Source of the DNA: Patescibacteria group bacterium UBA924
GTDB lineage: Bacteria > Patescibacteriota > Microgenomatia > UBA1400 > PJMF01
Direction of reading: 5' to 3'
DNA: 64,000 nucleotides
Assembly: GCA_002293725.1 (NCBI GenBank)
Contig: DBDU01000026.1
Location: forward strand, 6,313-70,312
This document shows positions 22,052 through 63,276 of the stretch, in pieces. Position 1 is the first letter of the stretch; every line of letters starts with the position of its first letter. The translations under genes and the position numbers were made by a program. Under the pieces are notes generated by a model. It saw only the letters and a list, made by a program, of their open reading frames with translations. It did not search any database and was not told the origin of the DNA.

Positions 22052-23854
22052 CTACTTAGAAATTTCAATTGATTTCAGCTCTTCTAATGTCGTGGCTTGA
22101 TCCCATCTTTTATCGTCGCGAAACTTGATAAAGCGAGGAAAACGCAGTGCCTGCCCAGCGGTGTGAATTGGCGAAGTGGTTAACTCATCGGCGGCCACTT
22201 CCACAACCAACTCTGGCGCACACCATTTATCGGGAATAAGAGCTTTATTGACAACGTAGGAAGGTGGCTGCTCGCTGACGATGAGAGCATCACAACGGCG
22301 CTTCACTTCGCCAAGCGTTTCTTCAGTCAAGCCAGTCCCAATTTTCGCTAAGCTCAGCACTTGTTGTTGCTGTTGATCGTATACACCGACCAGGAAAGCA
22401 CCAATTCCAAACTCAGCCCTCTTTCCCCGCCCTAGATAATAGCCCATGACAATGACGTCAAGCGTATCGCTGAGCTTCCCTTTTCGTCCCTCGGCCTCTT
22501 TCATCTTGACCCAACTCCAACCTTTGCGACCACTTTGATAGCCTGAGCTCATCTGTTTCATGACAACACCCTCCAGCCCCTCAGCCAGTGCTTGTTCGTG
22601 ATACTGACGGAGCTGTTCGGGATCGGATGTCACTTTGCCTTCTGTATGAACGAGCACATCATCATCGGTAAAGACTTCTTCCAATAGTGCTCGTCGCTCT
22701 TTGAGCGGTTTGTCGATGAGATTTTCACCATTCAAGTACAAGAGATCAAAGATATAGAAACGAACTGGAATCTCGGCAGCTTTCTCCGCTACTCCATGTT
22801 TGCGTTTCCGTTGAATTGTTTGTTGGAAGGAGATCAGCTGATTAGTCTGCGGATCATAGCCAATGGCCTCACCATCTAAGACACAGTTTTGGCATTTCAG
22901 CTTCTCCACTACTTTATCCAGCTCTGGGAACATGGCTGAACTTTCTTCTAGATTACGAGTGAATGTGCGTAGCAAAGTGGGTTTGCCATCTCGGGCTTTT
23001 TCAACATGAATCTGTACTCGCAGGCCATCGTACTTGGGCTCCGCAATTACTTCATGCATTTTTTCTATAACTTCGGTGGCACTGTTTAACCGCTGGCACA
23101 GTGCAGGCACTACTGGAACGCCGAGTTGAATCGTGTACTGCTCTGACAACAATTTGTGACGTGCGTCTGCATCATCTACTCTGAGATACTCTGCCGCCAA
23201 CTGACCAATATCAGCCCGCCGCTGATACGCAGCTTCCAACATCTCTCGTTCTGACTTATCTCCGCACATAGCCCACGAGAGCGCGTCCATGATCGTCATG
23301 TCGGAAAAACCCAACCGTAGACGACCCAACAGTATCCGGACTACAAACTTGGCTGAGAGAGGATCAAGCTTTTCAAAAAGCAGGACTGCTTTATCTTGTT
23401 TACGTTGCTGTGACTGTGCTCCAGAGTCTTTGGCAATATCCAGTAGAAGCTCATAGAGCTCTGCCACGGAGAGTGGAGTTGAAGTCTCACTACTCTGCTC
23501 GAAATATTGAGTAAGAGTCTCCTCAGCTACCTTACCTAAGTCACCAACTTCTTTATAACGACGCTCTACTTCTTTTTCAGCTTGAGTACTATCACTTTCC
23601 TCAAACAACCCAACTGTCCCCATTGACTGCATTGGCTTTAATCGTGCCAGGACCTTTATTACCGTTTTAACTGCAATCTGGAACTCTAGACCATAGTACT
23701 GGGGCAGCAGCTGTCCCTGTAAGAGATAACAGGCTGGTCGAACTTCAGCTGGCTCAAGTTTTTTAAGAAGATCTGACAGAATAGCAGTGATCTCTAATCG
23801 AGAAGAAGTGGTTTCTAGCTTATTTAAGTACTGGGAAAGTTGATCAATAGTCAT
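22052..23854 (-). CDS. ATP-dependent DNA ligase (three-domain, Lig I-like)
   Basis: The adenylation motif I (EPKYDGLRVQIHV) is followed by OB-fold-type motifs. The 600-aa product includes an N-terminal DNA-binding domain. Confidence 0.8.
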   Translation of the reverse strand: MTIDQLSQYLNKLETTSSRLEITAILSDLLKKLEPAEVRPACYLLQGQLLPQYYGLEFQIAVKTVIKVLARLKPMQSMGTVGLFEESDSTQAEKEVERRYKEVGDLGKVAEETLTQYFEQSSETSTPLSVAELYELLLDIAKDSGAQSQQRKQDKAVLLFEKLDPLSAKFVVRILLGRLRLGFSDMTIMDALSWAMCGDKSEREMLEAAYQRRADIGQLAAEYLRVDDADARHKLLSEQYTIQLGVPVVPALCQRLNSATEVIEKMHEVIAEPKYDGLRVQIHVEKARDGKPTLLRTFTRNLEESSAMFPELDKVVEKLKCQNCVLDGEAIGYDPQTNQLISFQQTIQRKRKHGVAEKAAEIPVRFYIFDLLYLNGENLIDKPLKERRALLEEVFTDDDVLVHTEGKVTSDPEQLRQYHEQALAEGLEGVVMKQMSSGYQSGRKGWSWVKMKEAEGRKGKLSDTLDVIVMGYYLGRGKRAEFGIGAFLVGVYDQQQQQVLSLAKIGTGLTEETLGEVKRRCDALIVSEQPPSYVVNKALIPDKWCAPELVVEVAADELTTSPIHTAGQALRFPRFIKFRDDKRWDQATTLEELKSIEISK

Positions 23855-23907: not shown

Positions 23908-25008
23908 CTATCGACGAAGCTTATACGTTACACCTTTGGTCACGCCACGCTTCTCAATCACACCTTTCGCCAGTAAGTCTTTAATGTCACGTAAAATTGT
24001 GTCCACAGAGATATTAGGCAGAACTTCCTGAGCATCAGCTGAGGTGACTTCATCTCTACTTTGGAAGAGTTCTAGTAAGACAATCTGTCGTTCAGATAAA
24101 GCAACCTGTTGGCCACCAAGCTCTTGTTTTAACTTGGTGTCTTTAGACAACTTCAACACTTGTTGTTTAATCTTGTCTATCTCAACGGCTAAGCCATAAC
24201 AGAAGTACTCCACCCAATAGGTCATCTCATTTTGCTGCTGAACAGATAACAACGCCTGATAGTACTGCTCGACATCATCATCAAAGTATTTTTCTAAAGA
24301 AAAGAAACGTTTGAAGTCATACCCTGATGAGTACAAAACCAAGGTAGCCAAAGCACGAGCGGTTCGTCCATTCCCTTCAATAAATGGATGCACATATACT
24401 ACTTGGTAGTGGGTAATAGCCGCACGGAAGATTGGGTGAAGCTGTTGTGTTGCGGGCGAGTTTAGCCAAGCAAAAAACTCTTCGATTAAGTATGGAATCT
24501 CCACAAAAACAGGTGGTCGAAAGACTACGGAACTATCGCTGGCACTGCGGACAACAACTTGTTTATCGCGATATTGACCAATGTATTGCGGGTCAATTAA
24601 GCGCTGCATGGTAAGTTTGTGCAACTGTTTTAAGATGCCTTCGTTGAGTGCCTTGGGATCTGAGATGTAGTCCTGCCAGTTATTAATCCACTCAATGACT
24701 TGGCGATAGTTAATCACCTCTTGCACATCACGCTCGCGGGCAATAATGCCAGCTCGCTCCGCGGCTACTTTTCCATCTTGGTATGCGTCAGCTCCCTCGA
24801 GGTTAACTAACTGCCCAGCTTGCTCTTGGGTCAAGTCATTTCCCTCAATCTTGGTACCGTAGTGAATCGTTCGCCGTAAAGCATCGTCACGAAACTTCGC
24901 TTCCCAAGCAGGTACTAACGCCGCGTTATCAATTAAGGCTTTGGCTGCTTCAATTCTAGAAACATACGTCAGCAAGTTATTGGTAATCGTAAAGTTGGGT
25001 TTGAACAT
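23908..25008 (-). CDS. Fic-family protein (Fic_N + FIC core + C-terminal wHTH)
   Basis: The canonical FIC motif is complete (HPFIEGNGRTARALATL). An N-terminal TKIEGNDLT block and a C-terminal helix-turn-helix-like tail are also present. Confidence 0.85.
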   Translation of the reverse strand: MFKPNFTITNNLLTYVSRIEAAKALIDNAALVPAWEAKFRDDALRRTIHYGTKIEGNDLTQEQAGQLVNLEGADAYQDGKVAAERAGIIARERDVQEVINYRQVIEWINNWQDYISDPKALNEGILKQLHKLTMQRLIDPQYIGQYRDKQVVVRSASDSSVVFRPPVFVEIPYLIEEFFAWLNSPATQQLHPIFRAAITHYQVVYVHPFIEGNGRTARALATLVLYSSGYDFKRFFSLEKYFDDDVEQYYQALLSVQQQNEMTYWVEYFCYGLAVEIDKIKQQVLKLSKDTKLKQELGGQQVALSERQIVLLELFQSRDEVTSADAQEVLPNISVDTILRDIKDLLAKGVIEKRGVTKGVTYKLRR

Positions 25009-29046: not shown

Positions 29047-30570
29047 ATGAAAAAGTTACTGGTCGCTCTCCTCACAAGCGCCGTTTTCTTCCTTGTGGCT
29101 ACGAAAAGCGCGGAAGCGATTGGGTGTACCCCAGTTATTTTCGAAGGCGCTGAAGGTTCATCTCTTCTCCGACCAGTCAATGGTCAGATACTACCCGCAG
29201 GCTCTGCTACTAACCCCTACGTTGCCTACCCAATTACTCCTCAAGAAGCTAGTGGTGCAAATGCACTGCGAAGTCCAGGTATCCACTGGTGTTGGAGGAA
29301 TACACAAGGAACGGGATTGGGCAGCGGTGCTTGTCAAAGTAATGCTCTTTCCAGCACATATCTAAACGATGTTCGAATTTACACTGACTCCACAGGACAA
29401 CAGTATATCGCTGCACCATTCACTCCTTATTCAGGGAGCACCGCAGATATTCAGTGGGAAGTTGCTCCTTGGGCAGGTGATGGATGGGGTGAGCGTCTTT
29501 GTGTTCAAGAAGGAACTGCCATCATTCGCACCGGTGAGGTTGGCCAATTCAGTTGTAATAATCCAGGCACTTCCGCCTCTTATACCAATCAAAATGTCCA
29601 CGTCGGTGTCAGCGTTTCTGACAGGAACATGGATCGTAGTCGTTCCTATATAGCGATGATTAAAGGCCAAGGTGCCTTTGACCTCGGTGGTGGCTGGGCA
29701 ATACCTTTACAGTATGATGCCGCCCAGAACCAGTACGAGGGTGGGTCTACTTATGGGGCTAATTTTGGTGATGGCACCTATACAGTGGTGATCTCTGATG
29801 CGAGTAACTTAGGCTGCAGGACTATTACTGACAACTTTGACATTCGTAACTGTGCTGTTTTCCCCCAATGTATTAGCTCGCTGCAAGTAGATCGAACTGA
29901 TCCTGACAATCAAGTTGACTATGAAGATCGAGACCAAGTTCTAGACGATGCTTCGGAGCGACAAGGCCTTGCCCCTAACGATAGCATCACTCCATTTAGT
30001 CTGTGTCGTCAAATTCCAGTCATGGCTCAACCCGATATCGAAGCACAAGTAGCCCAAATTCAAGATCCACAAGCCGCCGCTGCCATGCGGGCAGATTTAA
30101 TGCGACGTGCACAAAGTCAACGGAGTGAAAAAGCCAAGTGTTGTCTATGTACGTATGGCACAAATGCTGTTGATCCCGCCACTGGTGCTTGCCAAGGAGA
30201 GATCGGCACACCAGGACAAACAAATCCCAGTCTTTATTACTTCCGTCGTAACTTCAAACCAGGAATTTATACTGCGGTTGGTTGTATTGGAGCTGATAGT
30301 GAAAGTATCATCACCCGTTTAGTGAGAATCGGTTTGGGAATTGCGGGTGGCTTGGCTTTGTTAATGATCTTAGCTGGAGCATTCATGTTCTCCACTTCCC
30401 AAGGGGAACCTAAACGAGCCAGTGAAGCCAAAGAGCTGATTACCTCTGCGGTTTTAGGTTTAATCTTTATCATCTTCTCTGTAACTTTGCTACAATTCAT
30501 TGGTGTCACTATCCTGCAACTTCCTGGGTTTGGGCAAACACCACAAGCTCAAGAATCTACAGGTAACTAA
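29047..30570 (+). CDS. Secreted protein with a C-terminal VirB2/TrbC-like two-helix pilin module
   Basis: A signal peptide (MKKLLVALLTSAVFFLVATKSAEA) precedes a ~400-aa Cys-containing ectodomain. The C-terminal ~100 aa (GLGIAGGLALLMILAGAFMFSTSQGEPKRASEAKELITSAVLGLIFIIFSV) align with the pilin-like paralog family at 36.7-39.8 kb. Confidence 0.55.
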   Translation: MKKLLVALLTSAVFFLVATKSAEAIGCTPVIFEGAEGSSLLRPVNGQILPAGSATNPYVAYPITPQEASGANALRSPGIHWCWRNTQGTGLGSGACQSNALSSTYLNDVRIYTDSTGQQYIAAPFTPYSGSTADIQWEVAPWAGDGWGERLCVQEGTAIIRTGEVGQFSCNNPGTSASYTNQNVHVGVSVSDRNMDRSRSYIAMIKGQGAFDLGGGWAIPLQYDAAQNQYEGGSTYGANFGDGTYTVVISDASNLGCRTITDNFDIRNCAVFPQCISSLQVDRTDPDNQVDYEDRDQVLDDASERQGLAPNDSITPFSLCRQIPVMAQPDIEAQVAQIQDPQAAAAMRADLMRRAQSQRSEKAKCCLCTYGTNAVDPATGACQGEIGTPGQTNPSLYYFRRNFKPGIYTAVGCIGADSESIITRLVRIGLGIAGGLALLMILAGAFMFSTSQGEPKRASEAKELITSAVLGLIFIIFSVTLLQFIGVTILQLPGFGQTPQAQESTGN

Positions 30571-44619: not shown

Positions 44620-44648
44620 TTGCGGGATCTCTTGAGGTGGGATACAAT
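44620..44648 (+). promoter_or_regulatory. Candidate promoter (-35 TTGCGG, 17-bp spacer, -10 TACAAT) for the VirB6-like gene
   Basis: The -10 element ends 7 bp before the ATG at 44656, consistent with a leaderless or very short-leader transcript. Confidence 0.3.
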
Positions 44649-44655
44649 AGCGGTT

Positions 44656-46341
44656 ATGAAGAAACTGGCTGCTTTTTTCTTGGCATTTTTCCTCTTTGCA
44701 GTCTCTGTCCAACCAGCTTTAGCTCAAGACCGCGGTCTTACTGCTACTCAGCAACAAACCCAAGTTAATGAAAACTACAAAAGCGGAAATACGAGTATCG
44801 GTGGTGTCACCAACGAAATCGTCAAAGTTGCAGCCACAGTTCTCGGTCCTTGTCAGTTAACTGATGACGATTGTGGAGACTCATCTGGTGGACCATCCGC
44901 AAGCCGATCAATTATCAACGCTTTTACATATCTCTATACTCCTCCAGCAGATACTCAAACCTACATTGCTGATGTAATGAACTCTGCAGGTTTGAACATT
45001 GCTCAGCCAGCATATGCTCAAGGGCTAGGCTTCTCTTCTTTGGACCCAGTTCTTGATACCTGGAAAGCTTTTCGTAACGTCGCCTACTTGTTCTACGTAA
45101 TCATGTTCTTAGTCATCGGTTTCATGATTATGTTCCGACAGAAGATTAGCAGCCAGGCTGTGGTAAGCGCCCAACAAGCTTTACCAAAAATTATTGTTTC
45201 ACTGATTGCGGTCACTTTTTCCTACGCGATTGCTGGATTATTGATCGATGCCATGTACATCGTTATGTACTTAATCGTCGGTCTCTTCCCTGCTGCAACC
45301 TTTGGTAACCCTGGAAGTGAACAAAGTTTGAAAGACATTGCGATGGACCGCAACATCTTCCAGATTGGAACATACTTGTTGACCAGTGCCGGAACCCTTC
45401 AAAACGCCCAAGAATCGGTCCGTGCCATGATCCGTTCAGCCTTTGACACCCAACTTTCAGGCGTGGGTGATGCTTTAGGTTTAATTGGTGGACTTACCTT
45501 TGCGGTTGTCTTTGCCTTAGCCACCTTGTTTGGTATCTTCCGTTTGTTCTTTGAACTCTTGAAGACCTATATCAGTATTATTATTAGCATCGTCCTTTCT
45601 CCACTGGCATTAATGCTGGGAGCACTTCCTGGGAACAACGCTTTCCAGGCCTGGATTAAAACCTTGGTGGCTAACTTAGCAGTCTTCCCAGGAATCTTAT
45701 TAATCTTGGTCTTAGCCTTCATGTTAATTGGTGGCCAGTACGGTGGGAGACCAACTGCTCAACAGGTTGTTCCTCAAGTACAAGCGCAAGATACGTTCTT
45801 CCAAGGCTCATACAATGGTGGCTTCTTACCGCCATATATTCCTGGTGCAGGTAGTGGTAACGCTATCTCAATTATGTTGGGTCTAGGTGTAATCTTAATC
45901 ATGCCAGATCTGGCTGCTTCAATTAAGAAAACACTCGGTGGTTCCGGTGGAATCTTTGAACAGTTTGCCAATAACTTCACTACCAACTTAGAAAAAGGTT
46001 GGAAAGGTGGCGAGTTAGTTCCCGGACTGGGCTTTACCAATACCAACAACTATGGCGTATCTGGCCGTAACATCGCCTCTAAGCTATGGCGTGGCACTAA
46101 AGAAAGCCGTGAACGAGCTGAGAAGGGTCAACCAAATGTTATTGGGCGTGGCATAGTGGGTGAAAGTGCCGAGCTATATAAACGTGTTCGTCGTCAGCAG
46201 ATGGAAGAATATATGCGTAACAAAGTTCCTCGCGTGAAGCTAGGTAAGACCGAAAGCGAAGCCAAAGACCGACAGGTTCGTATGGGTGGACCTCCAAAGA
46301 CTCAAGTACCTCCATCTTCAGGGAGAATTGATGGGGAATAA
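44656..46341 (+). CDS. VirB6/TrbL-like polytopic membrane protein
   Basis: A signal peptide (MKKLAAFFLAFFLFAVSVQPALA) is followed by at least six TM helices (FYVIMFLVIGFMIMF; IVSLIAVTFSYAIAGLLIDAMYIVMYLIVGLF; LIGGLTFAVVFALATLFGIF; ISIIISIVLSPLALMLGALPG; LVANLAVFPGILLILVLAFMLIGG). The C-terminal tail is basic and hydrophilic. Confidence 0.5.
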   Translation: MKKLAAFFLAFFLFAVSVQPALAQDRGLTATQQQTQVNENYKSGNTSIGGVTNEIVKVAATVLGPCQLTDDDCGDSSGGPSASRSIINAFTYLYTPPADTQTYIADVMNSAGLNIAQPAYAQGLGFSSLDPVLDTWKAFRNVAYLFYVIMFLVIGFMIMFRQKISSQAVVSAQQALPKIIVSLIAVTFSYAIAGLLIDAMYIVMYLIVGLFPAATFGNPGSEQSLKDIAMDRNIFQIGTYLLTSAGTLQNAQESVRAMIRSAFDTQLSGVGDALGLIGGLTFAVVFALATLFGIFRLFFELLKTYISIIISIVLSPLALMLGALPGNNAFQAWIKTLVANLAVFPGILLILVLAFMLIGGQYGGRPTAQQVVPQVQAQDTFFQGSYNGGFLPPYIPGAGSGNAISIMLGLGVILIMPDLAASIKKTLGGSGGIFEQFANNFTTNLEKGWKGGELVPGLGFTNTNNYGVSGRNIASKLWRGTKESRERAEKGQPNVIGRGIVGESAELYKRVRRQQMEEYMRNKVPRVKLGKTESEAKDRQVRMGGPPKTQVPPSSGRIDGE

Positions 46342-52502: not shown

Positions 52503-54023
52503 ATGAATGAGAATGAGTACGAGCGACCACCAGAAGAAACCCCTGCTCCTGAACCAGTTGAAGCTCCCGCGGATATTCCTTCTGTAAACCCACCTACCCC
52601 AGAGACAACTCCTCCTGTTGCCACACCACCTGTAGAAGCTGGTGATAGCCCCATATCAAGGCTCACTACTCCCGAAGACGCCTCTGTCGATATTCCCATT
52701 GAGGGAAGCGCTGAAGAAAATGCCGAGGGCCAACCAGACACTCCAGAAGGAGAAGAAGCTGCTACTCCTCAACCAGAAAAAAGCTTATCGGAAAAGGAAA
52801 AAGAGTTGGCCGAGAATAAAGCGCGCGAAAAAGTCTACTTTTTATTGAAAACGCGCTTTGAGATGAGCGATGAAGATATTCAAAAAGAGCTAGGGAATTT
52901 GAGCTTGGAAGAGCTGTTTGATTTTTACACCGACCTCTATCCCGATTTTGTGAATGATCTTAATACTTTAGAAGAGGCCATTCACACCGTCGTTTTGCAA
53001 GAAGCTACTGCCCATGCGGAAGCCCAGGCAGCTGAAAAAGAACAAGATGATACTAGAGAAGGCGACGATGCTGATGAAGAAGTTCCTGTTGAGGAATCAG
53101 CTCCCGAAGCCATCTCCCAAGAGGGCGAAGATGACGCTACTGAAGCCAAAGATGCCGTCACAGAAGAAAGCGAGACTCCTGAACAAAAGAGCATGCGTCA
53201 GGCAAAAGAGCTCGTTCAACGACAAGCGGCCTGGGATATCTATCGTAAGAATCACCTAGAGACATTTATCAAAGAAAACTTAGTAGACGAAACCAAGTAC
53301 CCACCCGATAAGTTCCCTAATGGACCTCAGTACGAAGATCTCGATGATGAGGATAAGGCTAAAGTTGAGGCTGCATTTAAGGAGTTCTGGACTCAAGACT
53401 ACCTCCCTGAAAATGCAGATACCGAGTTTGCCGATCAAGATCAAGACTCTTTACGCCAAGCACTTAAGAAACTAGGGAAAGAAATTTGGGTCAAAGGCGC
53501 ATCGACGACCGATGCCTCAACGTTGCTGAGAACCTTGTTCCTGCAAGGTGCATATCACTCGGGTGGTCACTCCAGCGAAGCATTCGCTCAGGATGAAAAT
53601 GACCGCGGTACAGCTATTGACGTTGCTCGCTTCCGAGAGATGTGCGGTTGGAAAGATGGTGAAGGGAGTGAAGATAACAAGAAAAAGTGGATGCAGCTCT
53701 GTGCCATCATCTATAACCAACTGCAGAAGGCAGATAATAATGAAGGTGAAGTTGTTGCAGTAAGCGAGTGGACAGATGGCGAAGCACTTGAACCAAACGA
53801 GATGAAAGAGCACATGGAAGAGCTCTATGAAGCTTGTGTAACCTCAGGAAAAGAAAAAGTGAATCGCGCGTTAGTAGAAGCTTTCGATACAACTAAGAAC
53901 GGTGGAATTGCCCTCACTAAACCAGGTGTTCTGGGTGGAGAAGTTCATGCCTCACAAGAGCTGATCGTTCACTTCCAGATGATGGCCAATCACAGCGACT
54001 ATCTACAGAACTTCTTTTCATAA
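52503..54023 (+). CDS. Acidic protein (506 aa), unknown function
   Basis: A Pro/Thr/Glu-rich N-terminus is followed by an acidic helical region. It is transcribed divergently from the 50776..52356 gene. Confidence 0.5.
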   Translation: MNENEYERPPEETPAPEPVEAPADIPSVNPPTPETTPPVATPPVEAGDSPISRLTTPEDASVDIPIEGSAEENAEGQPDTPEGEEAATPQPEKSLSEKEKELAENKAREKVYFLLKTRFEMSDEDIQKELGNLSLEELFDFYTDLYPDFVNDLNTLEEAIHTVVLQEATAHAEAQAAEKEQDDTREGDDADEEVPVEESAPEAISQEGEDDATEAKDAVTEESETPEQKSMRQAKELVQRQAAWDIYRKNHLETFIKENLVDETKYPPDKFPNGPQYEDLDDEDKAKVEAAFKEFWTQDYLPENADTEFADQDQDSLRQALKKLGKEIWVKGASTTDASTLLRTLFLQGAYHSGGHSSEAFAQDENDRGTAIDVARFREMCGWKDGEGSEDNKKKWMQLCAIIYNQLQKADNNEGEVVAVSEWTDGEALEPNEMKEHMEELYEACVTSGKEKVNRALVEAFDTTKNGGIALTKPGVLGGEVHASQELIVHFQMMANHSDYLQNFFS

Positions 54024-54069
54024 GCCACGATTACATATTCCCTCCGCCTTTTTTTTGTGGTAGAAAAAG

Positions 54070-54200
54070 CCCACTCATTTTCGGAATCGGGTGAAAGTCC
54101 CGAACTGTGCCGCAACGGTAACTTTTTCGCTAAGTCGTAAAAGAAGTCCGATCGGAAAGTGAGTGCTAAAGGACGAGCATCCATATGCACATACACTGCG
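54070..54200 (+). promoter_or_regulatory. Cobalamin (AdoCbl) riboswitch-like element
   Basis: The core CGGAATCGGGTGAAAGTCCCGAACTGTGCCGCAACGGTAA closely matches the conserved cobalamin-riboswitch core (GGGAAUCCGGUGAAAAUCCGGAACUGUCCCGCAACUGUAA). The downstream block AAGTCCGATCGGAAAGTG partially matches the B12-box start (AGYCMG...). Confidence 0.45.
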
Positions 54201-54236
54201 TGTTTGTCGGCTCTGCTCCTCTTCTGAGGAGCTTTT

Positions 54237-56075
54237 ATGTCTAAGGAGCAACTTGCTACTTCGCGATGGGACTGGAGTGAGTTGAGCTTTGGTCTGTTGG
54301 GAATGGTGGAACATAGCCGCGAGCGCCTACATAAAGTGCGTTCAAACCTTGAAGGTAGACGCGTAGTAGAGTCGGCTCACAAAAATTGGGACAATACCAA
54401 CTACTGTCGTAGCTTGAGCCAGGACGCGCCACATCAATATACCTACCAACAGCTGTTAGACGTTTTCCCAGCTAACTTCCGCGCTTTCACCGACGAGTAC
54501 TGCCTTGGCACACTAGTTCAAGAGTACCCCTTGGTTGTAGATAAACGCGGTATGTTGGGGCTTGATGATACCTATAAAGAACCATTGACCGATCAAGCTC
54601 CCCGCTTTCAAGAAAAACTATCTCGAACTGGAAAACGACAGCAACGTGGAACGATCGAAACATTTAATAGCCAGCGTTTGGACACCTGGCTTTCCACAGT
54701 TTGTCACAATGAGCAGTACCCATTCGGAACTAAACTTGTTTGGTGCAGCCCTCCTGGATTTAAGGTGGAGGGATATCACGGTACCAGCAGTAAACACCAC
54801 AGCTTCATTTGGGTGTATGAAAAAGAACTCGGCCCTGAGGGGCAACCTCGAATGAGTATGACTCAGTTCCGCTGTTGGCCAAACCTTTCACAGATGGAAA
54901 GAATTCAACACGCCTTGCGATTGAAGGCTCAACCAACCGACGTCTTAGAAGATGCTGTTGTTCCGACCAACAAACTTTCTCGAAGGAACAGTGTTATTGC
55001 CGAGTTTATTGAGCTTCCTGCTGCAATATCGATGGATGAGATCGAAGACACGATCTATGAAACAGAAGACAGTTGGCAGGTACAACGTGAGGACATGCCC
55101 CTTCTTTCAGAAGAGCGACTCTATGCTTTCGCACAGTATCGAGATGACGTTCTTCATCAGTTTTTAATTCCGACATACCAAGCGCTGCTCGCTCCCATGT
55201 CTCAACTACTGGAACCCTACTCTTCTCCTTTTTGGAGATCTCCCGAGTATATTCAGCTTATTCAACAACTGGACCTTGCCTTTGCTATCGCTTGGCAACA
55301 TTTAATGAAGTATGTTGAGGCTGTCGATCAACGGCCAACTGCTCAAGCGCTTCCGGCACTTCCACTGGCAGAGCTGCAGCGAGTGGATCACTTGCGAGAA
55401 ATCTTTGCATTGAAAGTGAAGTCAGATAATGGCGATGCAACTAAAGAGGATCGCAAACGATTTAATGATTTAGCTCCTCAACTTCTTTCTGTAGGTTCAA
55501 CGGCACTAAGTGTCGGCCAATGCGGCATTGGAACGTTGATTCCTGTTCAGCTTTTTAAAGGACTTGAAGGATTTGAGTCACTACAAGGCTTTAGCTCACT
55601 TTCAAAATTAAGCAAGTTCGATATTGCCAAGCTCTCTGCCGCAGAGCAACTTGCTTTTAAAAGCCAAGTCTTGAGCCAATATAAACCACTTACTTTAATT
55701 GGAAAATTTGGTCAAAAAGAAACATTTTGGGTACAAAATGAATATTATCAACAGTATCTGCAGGGTTCGCGTGTCACCAGCTCAGGAGAGTTTATCGGTC
55801 CTTGTGATATTCCACTCACAACTGGTGCAGACAACTTGGTACTCACCAATGCTAAGTATCAAGAACTTTTCCAGGCTGCCACACAGCCCGCACTGCCAGA
55901 CCTTGCTCAGCTCGATCTTGATGAAAAAAACTCACTTTCCCAAGCTCGAACTGAGGATGAACGTGCTCAAATTCGACAAGCTTTCTCAAGCAAACGAAGT
56001 CAGCTAAAGCACAGAGTTTCTGTTACGCAATTGATTAACAATGATCTCTTTCGGCCAACCTTTGCCAGGGTATAA
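54237..56075 (+). CDS. Hypothetical soluble protein (612 aa)
   Basis: The ORF is uninterrupted with no recognised motifs. It is the first gene after the riboswitch-like element. Confidence 0.5.
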   Translation: MSKEQLATSRWDWSELSFGLLGMVEHSRERLHKVRSNLEGRRVVESAHKNWDNTNYCRSLSQDAPHQYTYQQLLDVFPANFRAFTDEYCLGTLVQEYPLVVDKRGMLGLDDTYKEPLTDQAPRFQEKLSRTGKRQQRGTIETFNSQRLDTWLSTVCHNEQYPFGTKLVWCSPPGFKVEGYHGTSSKHHSFIWVYEKELGPEGQPRMSMTQFRCWPNLSQMERIQHALRLKAQPTDVLEDAVVPTNKLSRRNSVIAEFIELPAAISMDEIEDTIYETEDSWQVQREDMPLLSEERLYAFAQYRDDVLHQFLIPTYQALLAPMSQLLEPYSSPFWRSPEYIQLIQQLDLAFAIAWQHLMKYVEAVDQRPTAQALPALPLAELQRVDHLREIFALKVKSDNGDATKEDRKRFNDLAPQLLSVGSTALSVGQCGIGTLIPVQLFKGLEGFESLQGFSSLSKLSKFDIAKLSAAEQLAFKSQVLSQYKPLTLIGKFGQKETFWVQNEYYQQYLQGSRVTSSGEFIGPCDIPLTTGADNLVLTNAKYQELFQAATQPALPDLAQLDLDEKNSLSQARTEDERAQIRQAFSSKRSQLKHRVSVTQLINNDLFRPTFARV

Positions 56076-56083
56076 TTCGACGT

Positions 56084-59000
56084 ATGGTTGATTCCCTTGC
56101 GCCAGCTGCAGAGCAGTTGAAGAAGTGCGCTGTTCATCACTCCATCTCTCAAAAAGACCTTGAACGACTTTTAGGTGTCATTATTGAGTCGCTTCAAGTT
56201 GGAGAGAGTGTTCGCGATCCAGAGACTCAACTTCCGGCTATCTATCCCGAGTGGTTAGACATCGAGTATGTTCGTGAACACTCACCCAACAACACAACTC
56301 CAGCTGGTTTTTACGTTAACCCCCGCTTGCAAAGGCGCAACGAAGAGACACCTGCTAATATTTTGGCGCTGAAAGATGTTTGTGACATTTTCAAAAGCAT
56401 CGCTGGTTTGGGAGAAGATGGTGACAACTTCATTGATGAAAAGATTCGGAGCGGTGAGTATGGTGGCTATGATCTTCTCGATGAAGAACAAGCTAACCTG
56501 ATCAACCGCATTAAAAATGATTACAATGGCGAACTACTCCCTCCGGACCTGAACTACCTTCGTGGTGACTCCCGTGTCTTACTATCTATCATCGCCACGC
56601 TCCATGCTGGATCGGCAGCAGAAGGTGAAGAAGTTGAAACGGTACTAACCCTTCCTGACGAGTTCAAAGCATTACTAGAGGGTGACCTTAACTTAGGCGT
56701 TTCTTGGGAGTGGGTAAAACCGCTCATTGAAGACGTTCTCCCCACGAAGCTCAATGCGCCTACAGTAGTTTTCCGTTACAACGATCAGAAACGTGCTGTC
56801 GCTGTCACCGAAATTCGTTTTTTCCTTAATAATTGGTTGCGAAAGTTCTACGAGGAGTACCAGCAACGGTTCCGTGAAGTTGGATTAGAGCTTCCTGAAA
56901 CAAAGCTGTTCGATGCAACGAACAAACTCGTTGCTTACTTTGACCTTCCTTATTGGGTTGAGCTGGATCAAGACATTATCACCTTTATCTCTAAAGAGCT
57001 CTCCCCACTGATTGAGCAGTATCTGAAACGTGGTCAGCCCACAGGGGTAGGCCTTGGATACCAAAAAGAAAATACCGAAGACGAAGAGAAAAAAGAGAAA
57101 CTTACTGAGAACATCAAGAATGTTGAAGAAGCTGACGATCTGCTTGAGCGTTTCTCACAAGCGGGAAAGTCTTACTCCCAAGAATCTGAACGTTTAACTA
57201 CCATTCTGTTACCTCAGTTGTTTAACATGCATGGCATCAGCCGTGATCTCACACAGCTGGGCCAGATTGATGATAACAGTCTCTTCCTGGTGGAGCGAGA
57301 GTTTAGACAAGAACTAGAAAACGTTCTACGTACTCTGACACCACAAGAGTTTGCGCTTCTTTCTGAACGTGGTGGTTCTCTGGAATTTCGTTTAATCGTT
57401 CTCAGAAAGTTGTATGGCAAGCTTTCTACAAACCCTCGTTTTATTGCTTCAATTCAAGAGTTCAAAGAAAACTATGTTTCTTACTTAGAAGAACGGGCTG
57501 CTGATGGTGACCAGGCCGCCCAACGAGAACTCAACAAACTAGAGCGTCAAATCAATCTTCCAGATCAGCGGTTTGATGAGGAGCTCGCTAAGAGCGAAAA
57601 AGTTCCGCCAGAAGAATGGACAAAGGAATTGAGTAAAGGTGGAAAAGGTGTTGGTGAAGTAACACTCCAAGAGTTTGCAGACCTTCACAAGATTTCCCAA
57701 GAGGATTTTCGTTTCCTCGCAACAAGACTTGTTGGAAATGATATCGACTTCCCAACACTCCTACGAAACTTAGACGTCATCATCGCTGAGCGGTGGTCGC
57801 CAGAGCAAATTCGTGGACTTGATCCCGGTGGTTCTACAGCTATCTTTGGTCTCGTTCTTCCAGATTATCTCACTCAAGATGGTCACCGTTTCCAACTCTT
57901 CCTCAACTTGTGTGCAGAGTACCTTTATGCCCGTCGCCAACATCTTGCTGACCACTATCAGCTGGATGCAATTAGTCGCCAGACTGGGAGCGGGTCAACA
58001 GACCTTGCCAGCCTCCAAGCCGCTCAAGAAATGGCTGAGCGGTACAAAGAGTATGGTGGTGGTGAAGCTCTGGTGGTCGGACGCGCCAGTGATAGTAAGC
58101 GTGTAGAAGAGTATCAACACGGAAACAAATTTGGCGTGGGAATTTCCGGAGTTCACAGTGAAACCAAAGAGCAACGAAAAGGACAGTTAGAAACTCATAA
58201 AAATACTACTCGTGCGCGTTTCCACGAGATGAGCATTGATGACAAACGGAAACAGCTTCAAAGTTTAGGTCTTTTAACTCCAGATAATGAACAGTTCATT
58301 GGCGATGACGAGCTGCGAATGGCTCAGCTTTTAGATACTGGACTTAATGAAGACTATGACGACGGTGTTCGTGGCTTGGATGACTTTTCGTACTACGAAG
58401 ACCAAGATAACGGATACGTCCAAGAGCAGCTTGGAACTGGACAACGAAGTATCCCTCAACGCTATGGAAGACCGGGTGGTCGCTCTCTGCTAAAAGGGGC
58501 TCTTAACTTAAAAAATCGATTCCAGAAAGCACAAAAAAGAATCAAGCAAGCCAAGAAGATTGCCAAAGCAGCCAAAAAACTGGCTGACAAAGGTTTAGAG
58601 AAAGTTGAAGCTGCTGCTGCATCGGTGGTGATGGGTCCGTTAGCACAGAATAAAACGCTTCGTCGTGGCATTCTTGGAGTATTAACAGCCCTCGTTCTTG
58701 ATACTCTAAACATGATCCAACAAGGCTTCTTTGCCAAAGTTGGAGCTTTTTTGGGTGGAGCTTTAGGTGGAATTGCTGGTGGAGCAGCCGGTGGTGTTTT
58801 TGTTATTCCTGGCGCAATTGTGGGCACCTTTGGTGGCGCTCGACTAGGTCATGGAATTGATCAGTGGTTTGCCAATACTTTTGGTGGTGCCCCCGAGGTT
58901 CGAGTCTCAAGCCCCGGTTTGAGCTTACCACTAGCTAAACAATCAGCCGATACTTTAACTGGTAGCGCCAAAGTTAGTGGCGGCGAGTTTGCCAAGACAA

Positions 59001-60151
59001 GTACTAATGCTTGGCCTGCAATCGCAACATCTGGTGGCTTCATGGCCACGGTAGGACTAGCTGGCGCAGTTATTACGGCTTCCATTCAACCCCCACCACT
59101 CGGAACTATTGGCGCTAGTGGACTGGAGTCTGAGTATGTGATCGTCGAAAAGGTCATTACTGACCCGGCTAACTTTACAGGAGATGTTGTTCCCTCATCT
59201 ATTACCTACACCATTAGTGTTGAAACAAAAGGTAACTACCAAATTGAGATCGTCAACTTCCAGGATCAAATTCAGTTAACCCCAAATACTGAGGTGCGTG
59301 GCTCAGAAGCACCCCCGGCGGCCCTTTCCTGTCCTGATTTTACATTTGCCAACCTTGCCACTCGGGTGATTGGTCCTAATGACGGAAAAGTTCAGATCGG
59401 AACGTGTACTATCACCCTTGATCAGAGTTACCACGATACTGGGATCTTTAATAAGTTCACCATGCAGTTTAAGGTTTCAGAAAATGGCCAAGCTGTCACC
59501 AACTCTAGCCCTGATTTCAACTGTGGTGAAACGAGCGATACTTTCTGTGCAATTTCTGGTGTTCAAGCCTGTCTAGGAGACTGTCCACTTCAACAAGAGG
59601 GCTGTTGGCCAACATCGGGAAGGTTAACTCAAGGTCCTGGAGGTGAGGGTTCTCATAGAAACACTGCTGCTATTGATATTGGTGCGAGGCTTGGTACGAA
59701 TGTCTATGCCACATTTGACGGCACTGCCTATGCCTTTGACACTTACGCCGCAGAGCCATCTAACCAAGGTTTGATTGATCGCACAGGAAAGAGTGGTGTC
59801 TACTCCAAGTCTTATGGAAAGCATGTTGTTCTCATTACCAATCAAGGCTTTGCACTTCTTTTTGCTCACTTAAATAGTCACTCTTCTACCCTGCGCTTAG
59901 GTACTCCAGTTCCAGTTACAGCAGGTACTATTCTTGGATATGTGGGAAATAGCGGAAGTACCACTGGCTTACAAATGGGAATGCACCTTCACTACGAGTA
60001 TCGCGTTCCAACGGGTAATAGTTGGCAAACGATACGATCTACCAATGGTGCTCAAATTATTGGGGTTCTTCCTAATGAAACCGGAGAAGCGTTTGTCTTT
60101 AATGGCACACGACAAGTTACAAGTTGTTATGATGCAAGTACTCCACAATAA
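56084..60151 (+). CDS. Giant (1355 aa) protein with a ~900-aa N-terminal soluble region, a glycine-zipper membrane segment and a C-terminal M23 (LytM-type) metallopeptidase domain
   Basis: The glycine-zipper segment reads FAKVGAFLGGALGGIAGGAAGGVFVIPGAIVGTFGGARLG. The M23 blocks are HRNTAAIDIGARLGTNVYATFDGTAYAF and GYVGNSGSTTGLQMGMHLHYEY. Confidence 0.7.
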   Translation: MVDSLAPAAEQLKKCAVHHSISQKDLERLLGVIIESLQVGESVRDPETQLPAIYPEWLDIEYVREHSPNNTTPAGFYVNPRLQRRNEETPANILALKDVCDIFKSIAGLGEDGDNFIDEKIRSGEYGGYDLLDEEQANLINRIKNDYNGELLPPDLNYLRGDSRVLLSIIATLHAGSAAEGEEVETVLTLPDEFKALLEGDLNLGVSWEWVKPLIEDVLPTKLNAPTVVFRYNDQKRAVAVTEIRFFLNNWLRKFYEEYQQRFREVGLELPETKLFDATNKLVAYFDLPYWVELDQDIITFISKELSPLIEQYLKRGQPTGVGLGYQKENTEDEEKKEKLTENIKNVEEADDLLERFSQAGKSYSQESERLTTILLPQLFNMHGISRDLTQLGQIDDNSLFLVEREFRQELENVLRTLTPQEFALLSERGGSLEFRLIVLRKLYGKLSTNPRFIASIQEFKENYVSYLEERAADGDQAAQRELNKLERQINLPDQRFDEELAKSEKVPPEEWTKELSKGGKGVGEVTLQEFADLHKISQEDFRFLATRLVGNDIDFPTLLRNLDVIIAERWSPEQIRGLDPGGSTAIFGLVLPDYLTQDGHRFQLFLNLCAEYLYARRQHLADHYQLDAISRQTGSGSTDLASLQAAQEMAERYKEYGGGEALVVGRASDSKRVEEYQHGNKFGVGISGVHSETKEQRKGQLETHKNTTRARFHEMSIDDKRKQLQSLGLLTPDNEQFIGDDELRMAQLLDTGLNEDYDDGVRGLDDFSYYEDQDNGYVQEQLGTGQRSIPQRYGRPGGRSLLKGALNLKNRFQKAQKRIKQAKKIAKAAKKLADKGLEKVEAAAASVVMGPLAQNKTLRRGILGVLTALVLDTLNMIQQGFFAKVGAFLGGALGGIAGGAAGGVFVIPGAIVGTFGGARLGHGIDQWFANTFGGAPEVRVSSPGLSLPLAKQSADTLTGSAKVSGGEFAKTSTNAWPAIATSGGFMATVGLAGAVITASIQPPPLGTIGASGLESEYVIVEKVITDPANFTGDVVPSSITYTISVETKGNYQIEIVNFQDQIQLTPNTEVRGSEAPPAALSCPDFTFANLATRVIGPNDGKVQIGTCTITLDQSYHDTGIFNKFTMQFKVSENGQAVTNSSPDFNCGETSDTFCAISGVQACLGDCPLQQEGCWPTSGRLTQGPGGEGSHRNTAAIDIGARLGTNVYATFDGTAYAFDTYAAEPSNQGLIDRTGKSGVYSKSYGKHVVLITNQGFALLFAHLNSHSSTLRLGTPVPVTAGTILGYVGNSGSTTGLQMGMHLHYEYRVPTGNSWQTIRSTNGAQIIGVLPNETGEAFVFNGTRQVTSCYDASTPQ

Positions 60152-60174: not shown

Positions 60175-61227
60175 ATGACAGAGCTGCCCTCAAATCAACC
60201 TCAGTATGAAGAGCTTCAAGATATTCGCTCTTCACTTGAACAACCAAGAAAGAAACCGTCTCGGTTGTGGATCGGACTTGGAATAGTTGCTGTAGTTTTA
60301 TTAGTTGTCGCTGCTATCATCCAAACCTTCACTCCACGAACTGTTCGTATTCCCGAAACTCCTTTTGTCGTTACAAACTCGAATAACACACTTCCAAACC
60401 TAACAGAGGTTTCTTACTCCGGACCAACGCCAGACTTCCCCACTCAGTTTTCTGTATACGCCGTCACTCAGACACTCCCCGAACAAGTTGTTGTCGGTGA
60501 CATGCTAGCGAAGTACGGACTAATGAAACCCAGAAACGATGCCAACTACTGGATCAATGGTCCAATTTCATTAATCCAAGACACCTCTCCGCCAATGTAC
60601 ACACTAGTGCTCAAGGATCCTGAGAATGAAGCACTTCCTATTATTAACATCGAACAAGCTCGCTTAGTTGCCTCTCGTTTCATGCAAGATACTTTCCCTG
60701 AGTTTCAGTTTAGTTTCATCCCAGGATCTGAAGGTTACTTTATTCTCAGCACAGAGCCAGGTGGGCCCGTTCCCCCTGAACAAGCTACTGGCGTAACTCT
60801 TTCTTTCACTCCTACATTAGAAACTGAGAACTTGCCAATCTTTTATGACAAATCCTTTGAACCACCATTTATCGTTACGGTAGATGGAAACAACACTATT
60901 CGGACACTTCGTTTCTCACCCCTTTTTAAACAATATACTAAAGTTGATACCCAAAACGTCCTTTCACTCGATGAATCATTAACCCAAATAGAGAGCGGCG
61001 TGGCTTCAATTATTAGTGCCACTATTGAAGACATGAATAGAGTTTCGATGTCCGAGCTCACTGCTGCTAACTTTAGCTCTGTGGGGTTAGAGTATCGCCA
61101 AGATCCCAACTTTGACGTGCTCTATCCTTTCTTCCACTTCTATGGAACAGGAACCAGTAGTAATGGGGTGACTGCCGAAATTGAAGTGATCACTCCAGCA
61201 GTAAAGTTAACTGGCTTTCAACGATAG
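60175..61227 (+). CDS. Bitopic membrane protein (350 aa); VirB8/TcpC-like by topology and position only
   Basis: A short cytoplasmic N-terminus is followed by one TM (LWIGLGIVAVVLLVVAAIIQTF) and a ~290-aa extracytoplasmic region. Confidence 0.45.
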   Translation: MTELPSNQPQYEELQDIRSSLEQPRKKPSRLWIGLGIVAVVLLVVAAIIQTFTPRTVRIPETPFVVTNSNNTLPNLTEVSYSGPTPDFPTQFSVYAVTQTLPEQVVVGDMLAKYGLMKPRNDANYWINGPISLIQDTSPPMYTLVLKDPENEALPIINIEQARLVASRFMQDTFPEFQFSFIPGSEGYFILSTEPGGPVPPEQATGVTLSFTPTLETENLPIFYDKSFEPPFIVTVDGNNTIRTLRFSPLFKQYTKVDTQNVLSLDESLTQIESGVASIISATIEDMNRVSMSELTAANFSSVGLEYRQDPNFDVLYPFFHFYGTGTSSNGVTAEIEVITPAVKLTGFQR

Positions 61228-61305: not shown

Positions 61306-63276
61306 ATGAGAGAACACGCCTTACCGCAGGACGTTACTGGCTATAAATTCCACATCATCGGCAACATGACGCTAAAGCAATTTGGCGAGGTGGCAGCCGG
61401 TTGTATTGTGGGTTTTTTGTTATACCAAACCAACCTCTACCCGATGATCAAGATTCCCTTGATTATCTTAGCGGCTGGTTCAGGGGCACTTATTGCCTTT
61501 GTCCCAATTGAAGAGCGACCACTTGACCAATGGATCACTGCTTTTTTCCGCGCTTTGTATAGACCAACTCAGTACTACTGGAAAAGAATGGTTAAAATTC
61601 CTGAGCCCTTCTTATATGAACCTCGGGTTGAACTCAAAACAGTAGTTGCTGATGTTGACCTTACCCCAGCCCGTCGACAGCGAGTAAAGGACTACCTTCG
61701 TTCTATTGACGAGAAACAAGCACCCCTCGATCAACTTGAAACATATACTGAGCAGCGTCTTAATGAGGTCATGGGTGTCTTTGGTCAACCGCTTCAAACT
61801 CCCCAACTTGAGACAACCACCACACCAGAGCAAACAGAGAGTCCTGACACCACGGACATCTTGAATGCCAGTCCAGAAAACGTAAGCGATACCGTTGATA
61901 GTCTTTCCTTTACCGGTCGTGCAATGACAGAGGAACCCGTCATTGAACAAGGTCCCTCAGCTGAAGAAGTAGAAATGAGCAACAACGTCTTACGTTTATT
62001 CGATACTAACGAAACGGTTGCCCCAGAGCCAGAAGTTATCCCTCCCCCCCCTCAATTTGAACCACCAGCAGAAGTGCTTCCAGAACCAGCACCGGAAGTT
62101 GAGTTGCCCAAACTTGATAGCATTCCCGATAAGGTTGACGTTTCTATCCCAGAACAAGTTCCTGTTGAAGCTCCTGAGCCTACTCCACCGCTTGAACCAG
62201 TTCCCGAGCCAGAGCCCCCACCAGAACCGTTTCCAGAGCCAAAACCACTTCCGCAGCCTGAACCTGTAACCGAGCTGAAACCACCAAAACCAACCGTCTT
62301 GCCTGAAGTTAGTTTGGAACAAAAACAAGAGAACTCAGTTCAACTTCCTGAAAAAGCAGAAGCTGTTCCTGAAGATTTGACGAGTATTCCTGAAGTGGCT
62401 CTCGAACCAGACGAAACAAATACAGAAGAGCCGGCTCCTGAAACAGAGCTTCCTCAAATTTCTACCGTATTTGACGGTGGAGGTGGCTCAGCCTCTGCAG
62501 AAAGCTTGCCTTCCGTTTCTGTAGATACCTCAACGAAGTACAGCCTTAGCGCCCATGGTTCACCCAATGCAGACAGCAGCGAGGTCGCACAAATTGCCGA
62601 TGTCATTGCCAAAAATGCTGGAAACCCTGTCGGGACAGCGGGAAAGTTCCGTTCTCGTGGCAAGAACAGCGTTCAGTTTAAAACACGCCGCAACGACCCA
62701 TCATCAGAAGCAGTTCTGCCTCACATCTTAGATATGACTGGCTCTTCAGATTCAGTCATTATGAAGCCTAAAGAAACACCGCCGCCGCCAAAAGAAACTC
62801 CTCAATCAAAAGAAGTTCTTGTTCCTGAGCTCGAAGAAATTCGGGTTGAACGCACTGTGGAAGCTGCTGAGAATACCCAGGATAAATCCGATGACAAAAA
62901 AGAAATGTCGACCGCTGTTGACCCATCTCTCCTACAGATGCCTGAAAAGGAAAGTCCTGTGCAAGGCTCAGTAGCTGTCACCTTTAATGCAAACTTGCCA
63001 TTTCCAGAGAAACCTACCGTTGCTAACAAAGTGGTGGGCATGGTCATTGATCAAGCTGGAAACTCGCTCCCCAACACCATTGTGGAGATTCTCACACCTC
63101 AAGGGGTTCCGGCTCGCGCCGTCAAAACAAACCCACTCGGTCAGTTCTTCATCGCTACTCCGCTTAATCCCGGCGATTATCTGATCACCGCCGAAAAAGA
63201 AGGTCTTACCTTTGACACACATCAGTTGTCTGTCACAAATAAAATTATCGATCCTATTGAAATAAGAGCCAATTAG
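61306..63276 (+). CDS. PrgI/VirB3-like N-terminal membrane domain fused to a long Pro/Glu-rich linker and a C-terminal carboxypeptidase-regulatory-like (transthyretin-fold) domain
   Basis: The N-terminus (LPQDVTGYKFHIIGNMTLKQFGEVAAGCIVGFLLY...PLIILAAGSGALIAFVPIEERPLDQWITAFFRALYRPTQYYW) fits the PrgI-family pattern (v..dl..yk.k..g.lTlrQ...two TM...rPld.w...f). The C-terminus (VVGMVIDQAGNSLPNTIVEIL...GQFFIATPLNPGDYLITAEKEGLTF) resembles a CarbopepD_reg-like domain. Confidence 0.5.
   Translation: MREHALPQDVTGYKFHIIGNMTLKQFGEVAAGCIVGFLLYQTNLYPMIKIPLIILAAGSGALIAFVPIEERPLDQWITAFFRALYRPTQYYWKRMVKIPEPFLYEPRVELKTVVADVDLTPARRQRVKDYLRSIDEKQAPLDQLETYTEQRLNEVMGVFGQPLQTPQLETTTTPEQTESPDTTDILNASPENVSDTVDSLSFTGRAMTEEPVIEQGPSAEEVEMSNNVLRLFDTNETVAPEPEVIPPPPQFEPPAEVLPEPAPEVELPKLDSIPDKVDVSIPEQVPVEAPEPTPPLEPVPEPEPPPEPFPEPKPLPQPEPVTELKPPKPTVLPEVSLEQKQENSVQLPEKAEAVPEDLTSIPEVALEPDETNTEEPAPETELPQISTVFDGGGGSASAESLPSVSVDTSTKYSLSAHGSPNADSSEVAQIADVIAKNAGNPVGTAGKFRSRGKNSVQFKTRRNDPSSEAVLPHILDMTGSSDSVIMKPKETPPPPKETPQSKEVLVPELEEIRVERTVEAAENTQDKSDDKKEMSTAVDPSLLQMPEKESPVQGSVAVTFNANLPFPEKPTVANKVVGMVIDQAGNSLPNTIVEILTPQGVPARAVKTNPLGQFFIATPLNPGDYLITAEKEGLTFDTHQLSVTNKIIDPIEIRAN

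Follow-up and report, generated by a model that had tools for sequence, protein, structure and literature searches.

A riboswitch leader before an orphan gene

The 64,000-nucleotide (nt) stretch of contig DBDU01000026.1 from Patescibacteria group bacterium UBA924 analysed here (the window, numbered from its first letter) contains a 213-nt intergenic gap, 54024-54236, between a 506-amino-acid (aa) open reading frame (ORF) that stops at 54023 and a 612-aa ORF whose ATG lies at 54237. An initial annotation of the window had reported in this gap a sequence like the core of cobalamin riboswitches, followed by a hairpin and an AGTCCG block, and all three were found where it had placed them: the 39-mer GGAATCGGGTGAAAGTCCCGAACTGTGCCGCAACGGTAA occupies 54083-54121 on the + strand, the hairpin 54122-54143, and AAGTCCGATCGGAAAGTG stands at 54144-54161. 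The stretch from 54058 to 54239 (+) is a complete riboswitch leader, comprising an extended -10 box, an aptamer of the cobalamin clan (54069-54167) and an expression platform that buries the Shine-Dalgarno (SD) sequence of the 612-aa gene. Its parts, with helices (P) and loops (L) numbered as in cobalamin riboswitches, are the following.

54058-54066 (+), putative extended -10-like box TGGTAGAAA (TGnTAnnnn) with a T-run before it, predicted from the sequence
54072-54082 (+), P1 5' strand CACTCATTTTC, pairing with 54155-54165
54083-54086 (+), junction GGAA of the conserved cobalamin core, aligned to the GGAA of the RF01482 and RF00174 consensus and nearly invariant in A2/A3
54087-54103 (+), P4 hairpin TCGGG-TGAAAGT-CCCGA with the GGUG..AA..CC motif, the P4/L4 consensus of the Rfam cobalamin models
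54106-54114 (+), P5 and L5 (TG-TGCCG-CA), with L5 UGCCG at 54108-54112, aligned to the RF00174 P5/L5 uG-CCCCCG-Ca
54116-54150 (+), P6, pairing CGG 54116-54118 with CCG 54148-54150 and enclosing a variable extension hairpin (54122-54143)
54145-54154 (+), shortened B12-box-like element AGTCCGATCG, aligned to RF00174 AGCCAGGAGACCuGCC and RF01482 AAGUCAGGUCUUU
54155-54165 (+), P1 3' strand GAAAGTGAGTG, covarying with 54072-54082
54171-54182 (+), mini-hairpin GGA-CGAGCA-TCC, candidate P13, with L13 CGAGCA at 54174-54179
54171-54221 (+), anti-sequestor, pairing GGA-C-GAGCA 54171-54179 with TGCTC-C-TC 54214-54221 around a variable apical part
54215-54232 (+), sequestor hairpin GCTCCTC-TTCT-GAGGAGC, with anti-SD 54215-54221 and SD GAGGAG 54226-54231
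54233-54239 (+), TTTT spacer and ATG of the 612-aa gene; the SD lies 5 nt before the ATG

A gathering-mode Rfam scan of the whole window returned tRNA only, with no riboswitch family reaching its gathering score. In the sensitive E-value mode, a scan of 53950-54300 matched RF01482 (AdoCbl) end to end (model 1-149 to window 54056-54206), with 41.8 bits against a gathering score of 50 and an E-value of 1.6e-6 in that search, or ~3e-4 when scaled to the whole window; two more matches of the same clan in this region were masked by clan competition. STnc100, FMN and FTX_2 also gave weak matches there (E 0.16-6.9) and were set aside as noise. Among the core sequence elements, GGAA and GGUGAAAGUCC are present, and the B12 box occurs only as a shortened AGUCCGAUCG. 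The core motif GCCACUG reads GCAACGG in the window, and both departures, one in P5 and one in P6, are compensated in the paired partner in the RF01482 alignment. The initial annotation had named a sub-threshold covariance search with RF00174 as grounds for giving up a cobalamin riboswitch, and this is formally what the window copy returns; that outcome is overturned by orthologous loci that pass curated thresholds and by the covariation described below.

Conservation across homologous loci

The DNA around 19 distinct homologues of the 612-aa protein, reaching down to 23% protein identity and including all relatives that could be fetched, was compared (loci are denoted L followed by a number). 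The same RNA lies upstream of the homologue in 19/19 loci, which answers the question, raised with the initial annotation, whether this protein family is riboswitch-associated elsewhere; in 18 of the 19, Rfam places a cobalamin-clan match (E <= 0.05) immediately before the homologue and in its orientation. RF00174 is passed by L001 and by L005, a near-duplicate of it (32.7 bits, gathering score 31.5), L022 passes RF01689 (40.8 against 36.5), and L007/L008 fall just under (33.9 against 36.5). Since the best-scoring model differs by member, being RF01482, RF00174 or RF01689, the family sits between three curated models of one clan. Clan-defining core positions are invariant across loci whose proteins share as little as 23% identity.

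A family-specific covariance model, R1, found exactly one copy per locus and no second copy over the 64-kb window, and scored the four most divergent loci at 79.5, 55.3, 50.6 and 49.9 bits. The sole locus without an Rfam clan match, L017, reaches 62.9 bits with R1; in its copy, which the public Rfam models miss entirely, an extra hairpin of 17 nt interrupts the P4 loop (1699-1715). The most divergent copy, in L022 (3864-3945), lacks the P6 extension (CGG-UCAAAGU-CCG) yet passes RF01689, so the extension is dispensable. Homologues lie on contigs of 1.08, 1.09, 1.23 and 1.28 Mb assembled independently from biofilm and mat metagenomes, one of these being a drinking-water biofilm, and a scan of a genome collection gave one locus only. 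A scan of viral contigs for the invariant L5 block produced two matches, both attributable to chance (R1 21 and 13 bits), and Rfam found no cobalamin match at L025, the one viral match checked.

Public gene calls misplace the start of the 612-aa homologue in several loci, putting it inside the leader in L010 (4001), L022 (4001) and L006 (281), and, in L002 (739), 15 nt past the true ATG. The conserved arrangement of SD, spacer and start marks the true start codon of these miscalled homologues.

In 18 of the 19 loci, the TGnTAnnnn box precedes P1 at constant spacing, the 19th being clipped by a contig end. Because the upstream neighbour lies on the opposite strand in five loci (L014, L018, L019, L021 and L022), we infer that the leader carries its own promoter.

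Aptamer architecture and covariation

The aptamer is a compact four-way junction of P1, P4, P5/L5 and P6, the last with its dispensable extension. RNAalifold, run unguided on a 15-sequence leader alignment, recovered P1, P4, the P6 base and the SD hairpin. In the model-fitted alignment, standard pairs account for 92.2% of cells compared with 80.1% after shuffling (0/500 as good), and pairing falls to 29-51% when partners are slid by 1-3 columns. Two-sided (compensatory) changes were found in 13 pairs where 7.7 were expected (0/500 shuffles).

Within P1, such changes affect 10/11 pairs, and the cognate duplexes have a mean energy of -10.55 kcal/mol as against -6.53 for swapped partners, with 0/5000 permutations as good. 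P4, with 5 base pairs (bp), is paired in 100% of cells and compensatory in 2/5 pairs, the window having G-C where others have U-A. The base of the P6 extension covaries as well; its terminal hairpin spans 11-56 nt of unrelated sequence across the 15 loci measured, and L020 and L023 have longer ones. Neither P5 nor the three basal pairs of P6 vary; they give no covariation signal and are supported by the Rfam alignments. The covariance-supported fold that had been put forward as a check of the element was thus obtained, with P1 and P4 covarying and overall pairing beating all 500 shuffles.

The P5/L5 block is invariant, and AG[UC]CCG[AG]UC is retained, in 19/19 loci. Relative to RF00174, the B12-box-like element carries a 2-nt deletion and its GCC tail is absent.

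A chance resemblance, or a small coding gene in place of an RNA, could draw on the open minus-strand frame across the leader (minus-strand ORFs 53999-54196 and 54075-54314) and on the score of the window copy under the Rfam thresholds. Such an origin is hard to square with the presence of the RNA in 19/19 loci, including divergent ones, with its plentiful compensatory changes, with invariant blocks separated by hairpins that differ in length by non-multiples of 3, and with stops in all three forward frames of the leader. On the strength of this covariation, the divergent-locus copies, the length pattern and the closed forward frames it was ruled out, and its probability is close to nil. A conserved cis-regulatory RNA homologous to cobalamin riboswitches is thus almost certainly real, and the central proposal of the initial annotation, a cobalamin-riboswitch-like element on the + strand before the 612-aa gene, has held up on the clan matches in 18/19 loci, the family covariance model, the covariation and a platform of cobalamin type.

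An expression platform with three exclusive structures

Downstream of the aptamer, the platform can fold in three ways that exclude one another, as mini-hairpin, anti-sequestor or sequestor. The GACGAGCAUC of P13 is invariant in 19/19 loci; the pair that flanks it is G-C in 16 loci, while L020, L022 and L023 have C-G there and one pair more. Taken alone, P13 is worth -1.6 to -4.6 kcal/mol, far weaker than the anti-sequestor. The L13 sequence CG(A)GCA is complementary to L5 UGCCG through 5 Watson-Crick pairs with one bulged A, a match that would arise in 0.46% of random 6-mers. The L5 consensus of cobalamin riboswitches is UCCCG (PMC10327014); L5 of this family differs from it at one position, and L13 carries the matching base. 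Other partners for L5 were sought in the variable apical loops and in the SD-hairpin loop, which are unconserved and show no covariation, and a conserved GGC partner for a 'GCC' reading of L5 was missing in most loci on manual inspection.

The sequestor hairpin, with the SD in its stem, is present in 19/19 loci. In L023 the SD reads AAGGAG and the anti-SD UUCCUU, a compensatory change, and the sequestor takes the form of a long-range helix into which a hairpin is inserted. When transcripts were folded up to the nucleotide before the SD, the anti-sequestor was the minimum-energy structure in essentially all loci, about 18/19 (the automated count is 16/19, with L022 miscounted and L002 and L007 partial). 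The SD is essentially fully paired at equilibrium, and the best SD-free structure lies 1.4-8.6 kcal/mol (mean 4.4) above the SD-sequestered minimum. A simple thermodynamic switch at P1 was dropped, as equilibrium folds with the P1 3' strand free or blocked both pair the SD.

The SD hairpin with the U-run after it scores terminator-like. The spacer is U-rich (3 or more U among its first 6 nt) in 15/19 loci, the exceptions being L015, L016, L017 and L021, and at least 4 U fall within the 6 nt after the SD in 11/19. Given the four loci that lack a U-run, SD hiding is the output that would be universal.

A further complementarity, between the P1 3' strand (54155-54165) and the apical part of the anti-sequestor (54183-54200), occurs in some loci only. 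Those that show it include the window, L018, L001, L002/L003, L014, L004 and L022, and it extends to 10 bp in L002/L003 and to 12 bp in both L018 and L001. Cognate partners outdo swapped ones (0/5000 and 12/10000), with the own partner ranking poorly in about half of the loci. This pairing could be a pseudoknot that steadies an ON state with P1 open, or the basis of an ON-switch logic.

Proposed switch mechanism

We interpret the whole as a functional cobalamin-clan riboswitch with its own promoter, in which a corrinoid most likely represses the 612-aa gene, and probably the M23 and PrgI/VirB3-like genes after it, through a relay, and give this complete statement a probability of roughly 0.6. 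Of its parts, corrinoid binding is likely, and so, to a slightly lesser degree, is repression by the relay described here once binding is granted. The prediction of corrinoid repression follows from the match of the platform to the relay of Priestia (P.) megaterium metE, discussed below. The data show a conserved RNA, its homology to the cobalamin clan, its helices and the three alternative platform structures, from which we infer that it binds a corrinoid, forms the kissing loop and switches OFF.

In the ligand-free RNA, the weak P13 (GGA-CGAGCA-UCC) would fail to hold, and GA-C-GAGCA would pair with the anti-SD strand UGCUC-C-UC once this is transcribed, forming a co-transcriptional anti-sequestor that leaves the SD GAGGAG exposed and allows translation to start. 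With ligand bound, L5 (UGCCG) would kiss L13 (CG-A-GCA) and lock P13, so that the freed anti-SD would pair with the SD in GCUCCUC-UUCU-GAGGAGC and initiation would be blocked. Since a U-run follows the hairpin in most loci, termination may be added to this block.

Several observations weigh against this interpretation. The window copy scores under every Rfam gathering score; the B12 box is shortened and lacks its GCC tail, which leaves ligand identity and selectivity uncertain; and the operon holds no recognisable B12-related gene. As L5 and L13 are both invariant, the kissing loop gains no covariation, and the swap in the P13 stem may be a single event common to three related loci. The complementarity between the P1 3' strand and the anti-sequestor apex has no explanation in the relay model. 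Finally, equilibrium folding predicts a sequestered SD whether the P1 3' strand is free or not; because it does not separate the states, the switch would have to be kinetic or to act via tertiary contacts.

Three other outcomes for the same RNA were weighed. The apical complementarity of the P1 3' strand, lying just after P13 in several loci with cognate partners beating swapped ones, could serve a corrinoid-activated ON switch, in which ligand-stabilised P1 would withdraw its 3' strand from the anti-sequestor apex and free the SD, while in the ligand-free RNA this strand would invade and the SD hairpin would form. Activating corrinoid riboswitches do exist, such as A. halodurans cobT (PMC10327014), but the known activating design has P13 overlapping a terminator strand, which is not the case here. 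Such a switch would also leave the invariant L13 and the weak P13 without a role, it would depend on a complementarity that is uneven, with a poor own partner in about half of the loci, and P1 is long enough (9-11 bp, -5.5 to -15 kcal/mol) to form without ligand; we regard it as improbable. Hardly more probable is a descendant of a cobalamin aptamer that no longer senses a corrinoid, having turned to another ligand or become a ligand-independent leader (a protein site or a constitutive translational brake). The shortened B12 box, the off-consensus L5, the sub-threshold scores of most copies, the absence of a visible B12 link among the regulated genes and an SD sequestered at equilibrium in all modelled states would fit this loss, whereas an invariant clan-defining core in loci down to 23% protein identity, two distinct loci that pass curated thresholds and a platform that follows the corrinoid-specific L5-L13/P13 logic speak for retained sensing.

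The remaining alternative keeps aptamer and ligand and moves the main output to premature termination at the GCUCCUC/GAGGAGC hairpin and its U-run. The validated metE relay is transcriptional (PMC10327014), the hairpin with TTTT is terminator-like, and 11/19 loci have at least 4 U; yet L015, L016, L017 and L021 keep the hairpin without a U-run, the long-range sequestor of L023 is not shaped like a terminator, and the SD lies inside the stem in 19/19 loci. Termination as the main output is rather unlikely on this balance, and the two outputs are not mutually exclusive. Repression of translation through the relay remains the reading we prefer.

Relation to known riboswitches

This RNA adds a compact new member, probably working by a known mechanism, to a known riboswitch clan, and it is the regulon that is unusual. 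With the cobalamin clan CL00101 (RF00174, RF01482 and RF01689) it shares the four-way junction, the GGAA, the GGUG..AA..CC P4, a short P5 with a 5-nt L5, a P6 entry of the CAACGGUAA type and a B12-box core, AGUCCG, that a long basal helix closes. It departs from the clan in that most copies, the window's among them, are sub-threshold, P6 extends only into a plain hairpin (0-56 nt) and the P7-P11 periphery is absent, the B12 box has lost 2 nt as well as the GCC tail, and L5 is UGCCG, not UCCCG. The expression platform of this family is kept almost nucleotide for nucleotide.

The closest mechanistic parallel is P. megaterium metE, where an L5-L13 kissing loop stabilises P13 with ligand, a relay demonstrated by compensatory mutagenesis; without ligand, bases on the 3' side of P13 engage the terminator's 5' strand, for which P13 must be weaker than the alternative helix (PMC10327014). 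The three-part relay proposed here would be the same, and P13 alone is again weaker than the alternative helix. The metE leader, however, ends in a terminator hairpin and precedes a gene for a B12-independent methionine synthase, whereas here the hairpin holds the SD and the genes are secretion-linked; in addition, P13 has only 3-5 bp here, L13 loop bases enter the alternative helix along with the stem, and the relay is a prediction. Kissing loops with one bulged base have been described, the bulge being in L13 for env8HyCbl (PMC10327014).

Translational control with an L5-L13 kissing loop that decides whether the ribosome-binding site (RBS) is hidden would be shared with env8HyCbl and E. coli btuB. 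In these, the kissing-stabilised P13 promotes the RBS hairpin directly (PMC10327014), while in the present family a separate anti-SD/SD hairpin lies downstream and P13 would act one step removed, via the anti-sequestor. The genes that they control belong to B12 uptake or metabolism, in contrast to the secretion-linked genes found here.

Probable target genes

Four genes on the + strand follow the leader.

54237-56075 (+), 612-aa orphan protein, the first predicted target, with no Pfam or NCBIfam family
56084-60151 (+), 1355-aa M23 peptidoglycan hydrolase with a C-terminal M23 peptidase domain (Pfam)
60175-61227 (+), 350-aa protein with no detectable family
61306-63276 (+), 656-aa PrgI/VirB3-like protein with an N-terminal Pfam PrgI match (E 1.9e-8)

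The gaps after the 612-aa, M23 and 350-aa genes are 8, 23 and 78 nt, and no terminator-like site is intergenic in the operon (9 sites against 8.3 expected, all inside genes). Wherever a locus is long enough to show it, the M23 gene comes next after the 612-aa homologue, and the four genes are probably co-transcribed. The gene labels given initially were partly right: Pfam confirms the M23 and the PrgI/VirB3-like genes, whereas the supposed VirB8-like gene, the 350-aa one, has no detectable VirB8 signature, and no VirB4-like gene lies downstream on the + strand in the window.

The 612-aa protein matched no family in Pfam or NCBIfam. Its close homologues form 15 clusters, at 98-38% identity; an exhaustive profile search gathered 105 representatives of a wider superfamily, and a profile word-index search returned nothing beyond the first 15. 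Its AlphaFold2 (AF2) model has a mean predicted local distance difference test (pLDDT) score of 75 and gave no significant match to solved structures. E87, R137, E141, S171, C429, G521, P522 and C523 are invariant across the superfamily, which suggests that the protein may be an enzyme. The invariant Cys429 is held by a conserved GQCGLGT in a low-confidence loop (residues 422-441, pLDDT < 50), and the second invariant Cys of the superfamily belongs to a GPC motif at residues 521-523.

Neither Pfam, NCBIfam nor the structure match of the 612-aa protein revealed a recognisable B12-linked gene among the operon genes. That such genes would be unexpected for a B12 riboswitch had been remarked from the start, and the predicted regulon is indeed new for the class, holding no recognisable gene for B12 synthesis or uptake or for a B12-independent isozyme. 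What is unusual is that the pairing of riboswitch and gene is conserved across the whole 612-aa protein superfamily. By the usual logic of riboswitch regulons, this suggests that the 612-aa family (~105 representative clusters, no known fold) may be tied to corrinoid supply or to life without it.

A possible link to type IV secretion

The type IV secretion system (T4SS) of Patescibacteria was needed for epibiotic growth in one species tested, and its function has been called completely unknown (PMC11665869, PMC12102498). No riboswitch or defined signal for Patescibacteria T4SS genes is reported in PMC11665869, PMC12102498 or the literature found by text searches, and the conserved leader gives a first hint of a signal that may control these poorly understood genes.

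That a lineage with a presumably small genome could sense a corrinoid derived from its host, as the initial annotation proposed, is plausible. Tentatively, corrinoid availability could be the natural signal that gates a secretion-linked operon in an epibiotic, B12-auxotrophic lineage of Patescibacteria, although we consider this rather unlikely. If corrinoid were that signal, low B12 would turn on the enzyme-like orphan together with a giant cell-wall hydrolase and membrane parts of a T4SS, for host engagement or for acquiring corrinoids via the apparatus; a T4SS of the candidate phyla radiation (CPR) would then have its first defined regulatory input, and cobalamin riboswitches a regulon outside B12 metabolism. 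The compact, sub-threshold branch with its readable platform could also extend the Rfam models, and a native riboswitch part might find use in genetic tools for these organisms.

Genomic setting

Elsewhere in the window, further parts resemble T4SS components.

12357-14693 (-), VirD4/TraD-like coupling ATPase, by family match
29047-30570 (+), 507-aa protein ending in a T4SS_pilin domain, PF18895 (E 2.8e-6)
44620-46341 (+), 573-aa protein with a weak, below-cut-off match to TrbC/VirB2, PF04956

Together with the PrgI/VirB3-like protein and the cell-wall hydrolase, this ATPase and these VirB2-like pilins (PF18895 and, weakly, PF04956) resemble the repertoire described for the monoderm-type T4SS of Patescibacteria (PMC12102498; PMC11665869), of which the 612-aa protein is not a recognised component. 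From these parts and the contig sizes of the homologues, a small-genome bacterium of Patescibacteria type would be expected. Neither VirB4 nor VirB6 was identified in the 64-kb window. The T4SS-like parts do not form one block and are scattered over ~50 kb, with very large family-less proteins between them (1238, 1370, 526 and 506 aa).

Other genes of the window include SpoIID, a fusion of Lgt and DUF192 (15486-16889, -), an ATP-dependent DNA ligase of eukaryotic/archaeal type with three domains (22052-23854, -) and a Fic-domain protein (23908-25008, -). Most bacteria read AUA with a lysidine-modified CAU tRNA, and a UAU anticodon is rare. The window encodes a tRNA-Ile with the anticodon UAU at 7360-7436 (+), found by ARAGORN and by the Rfam tRNA model (73 bits), which may be a lineage marker.

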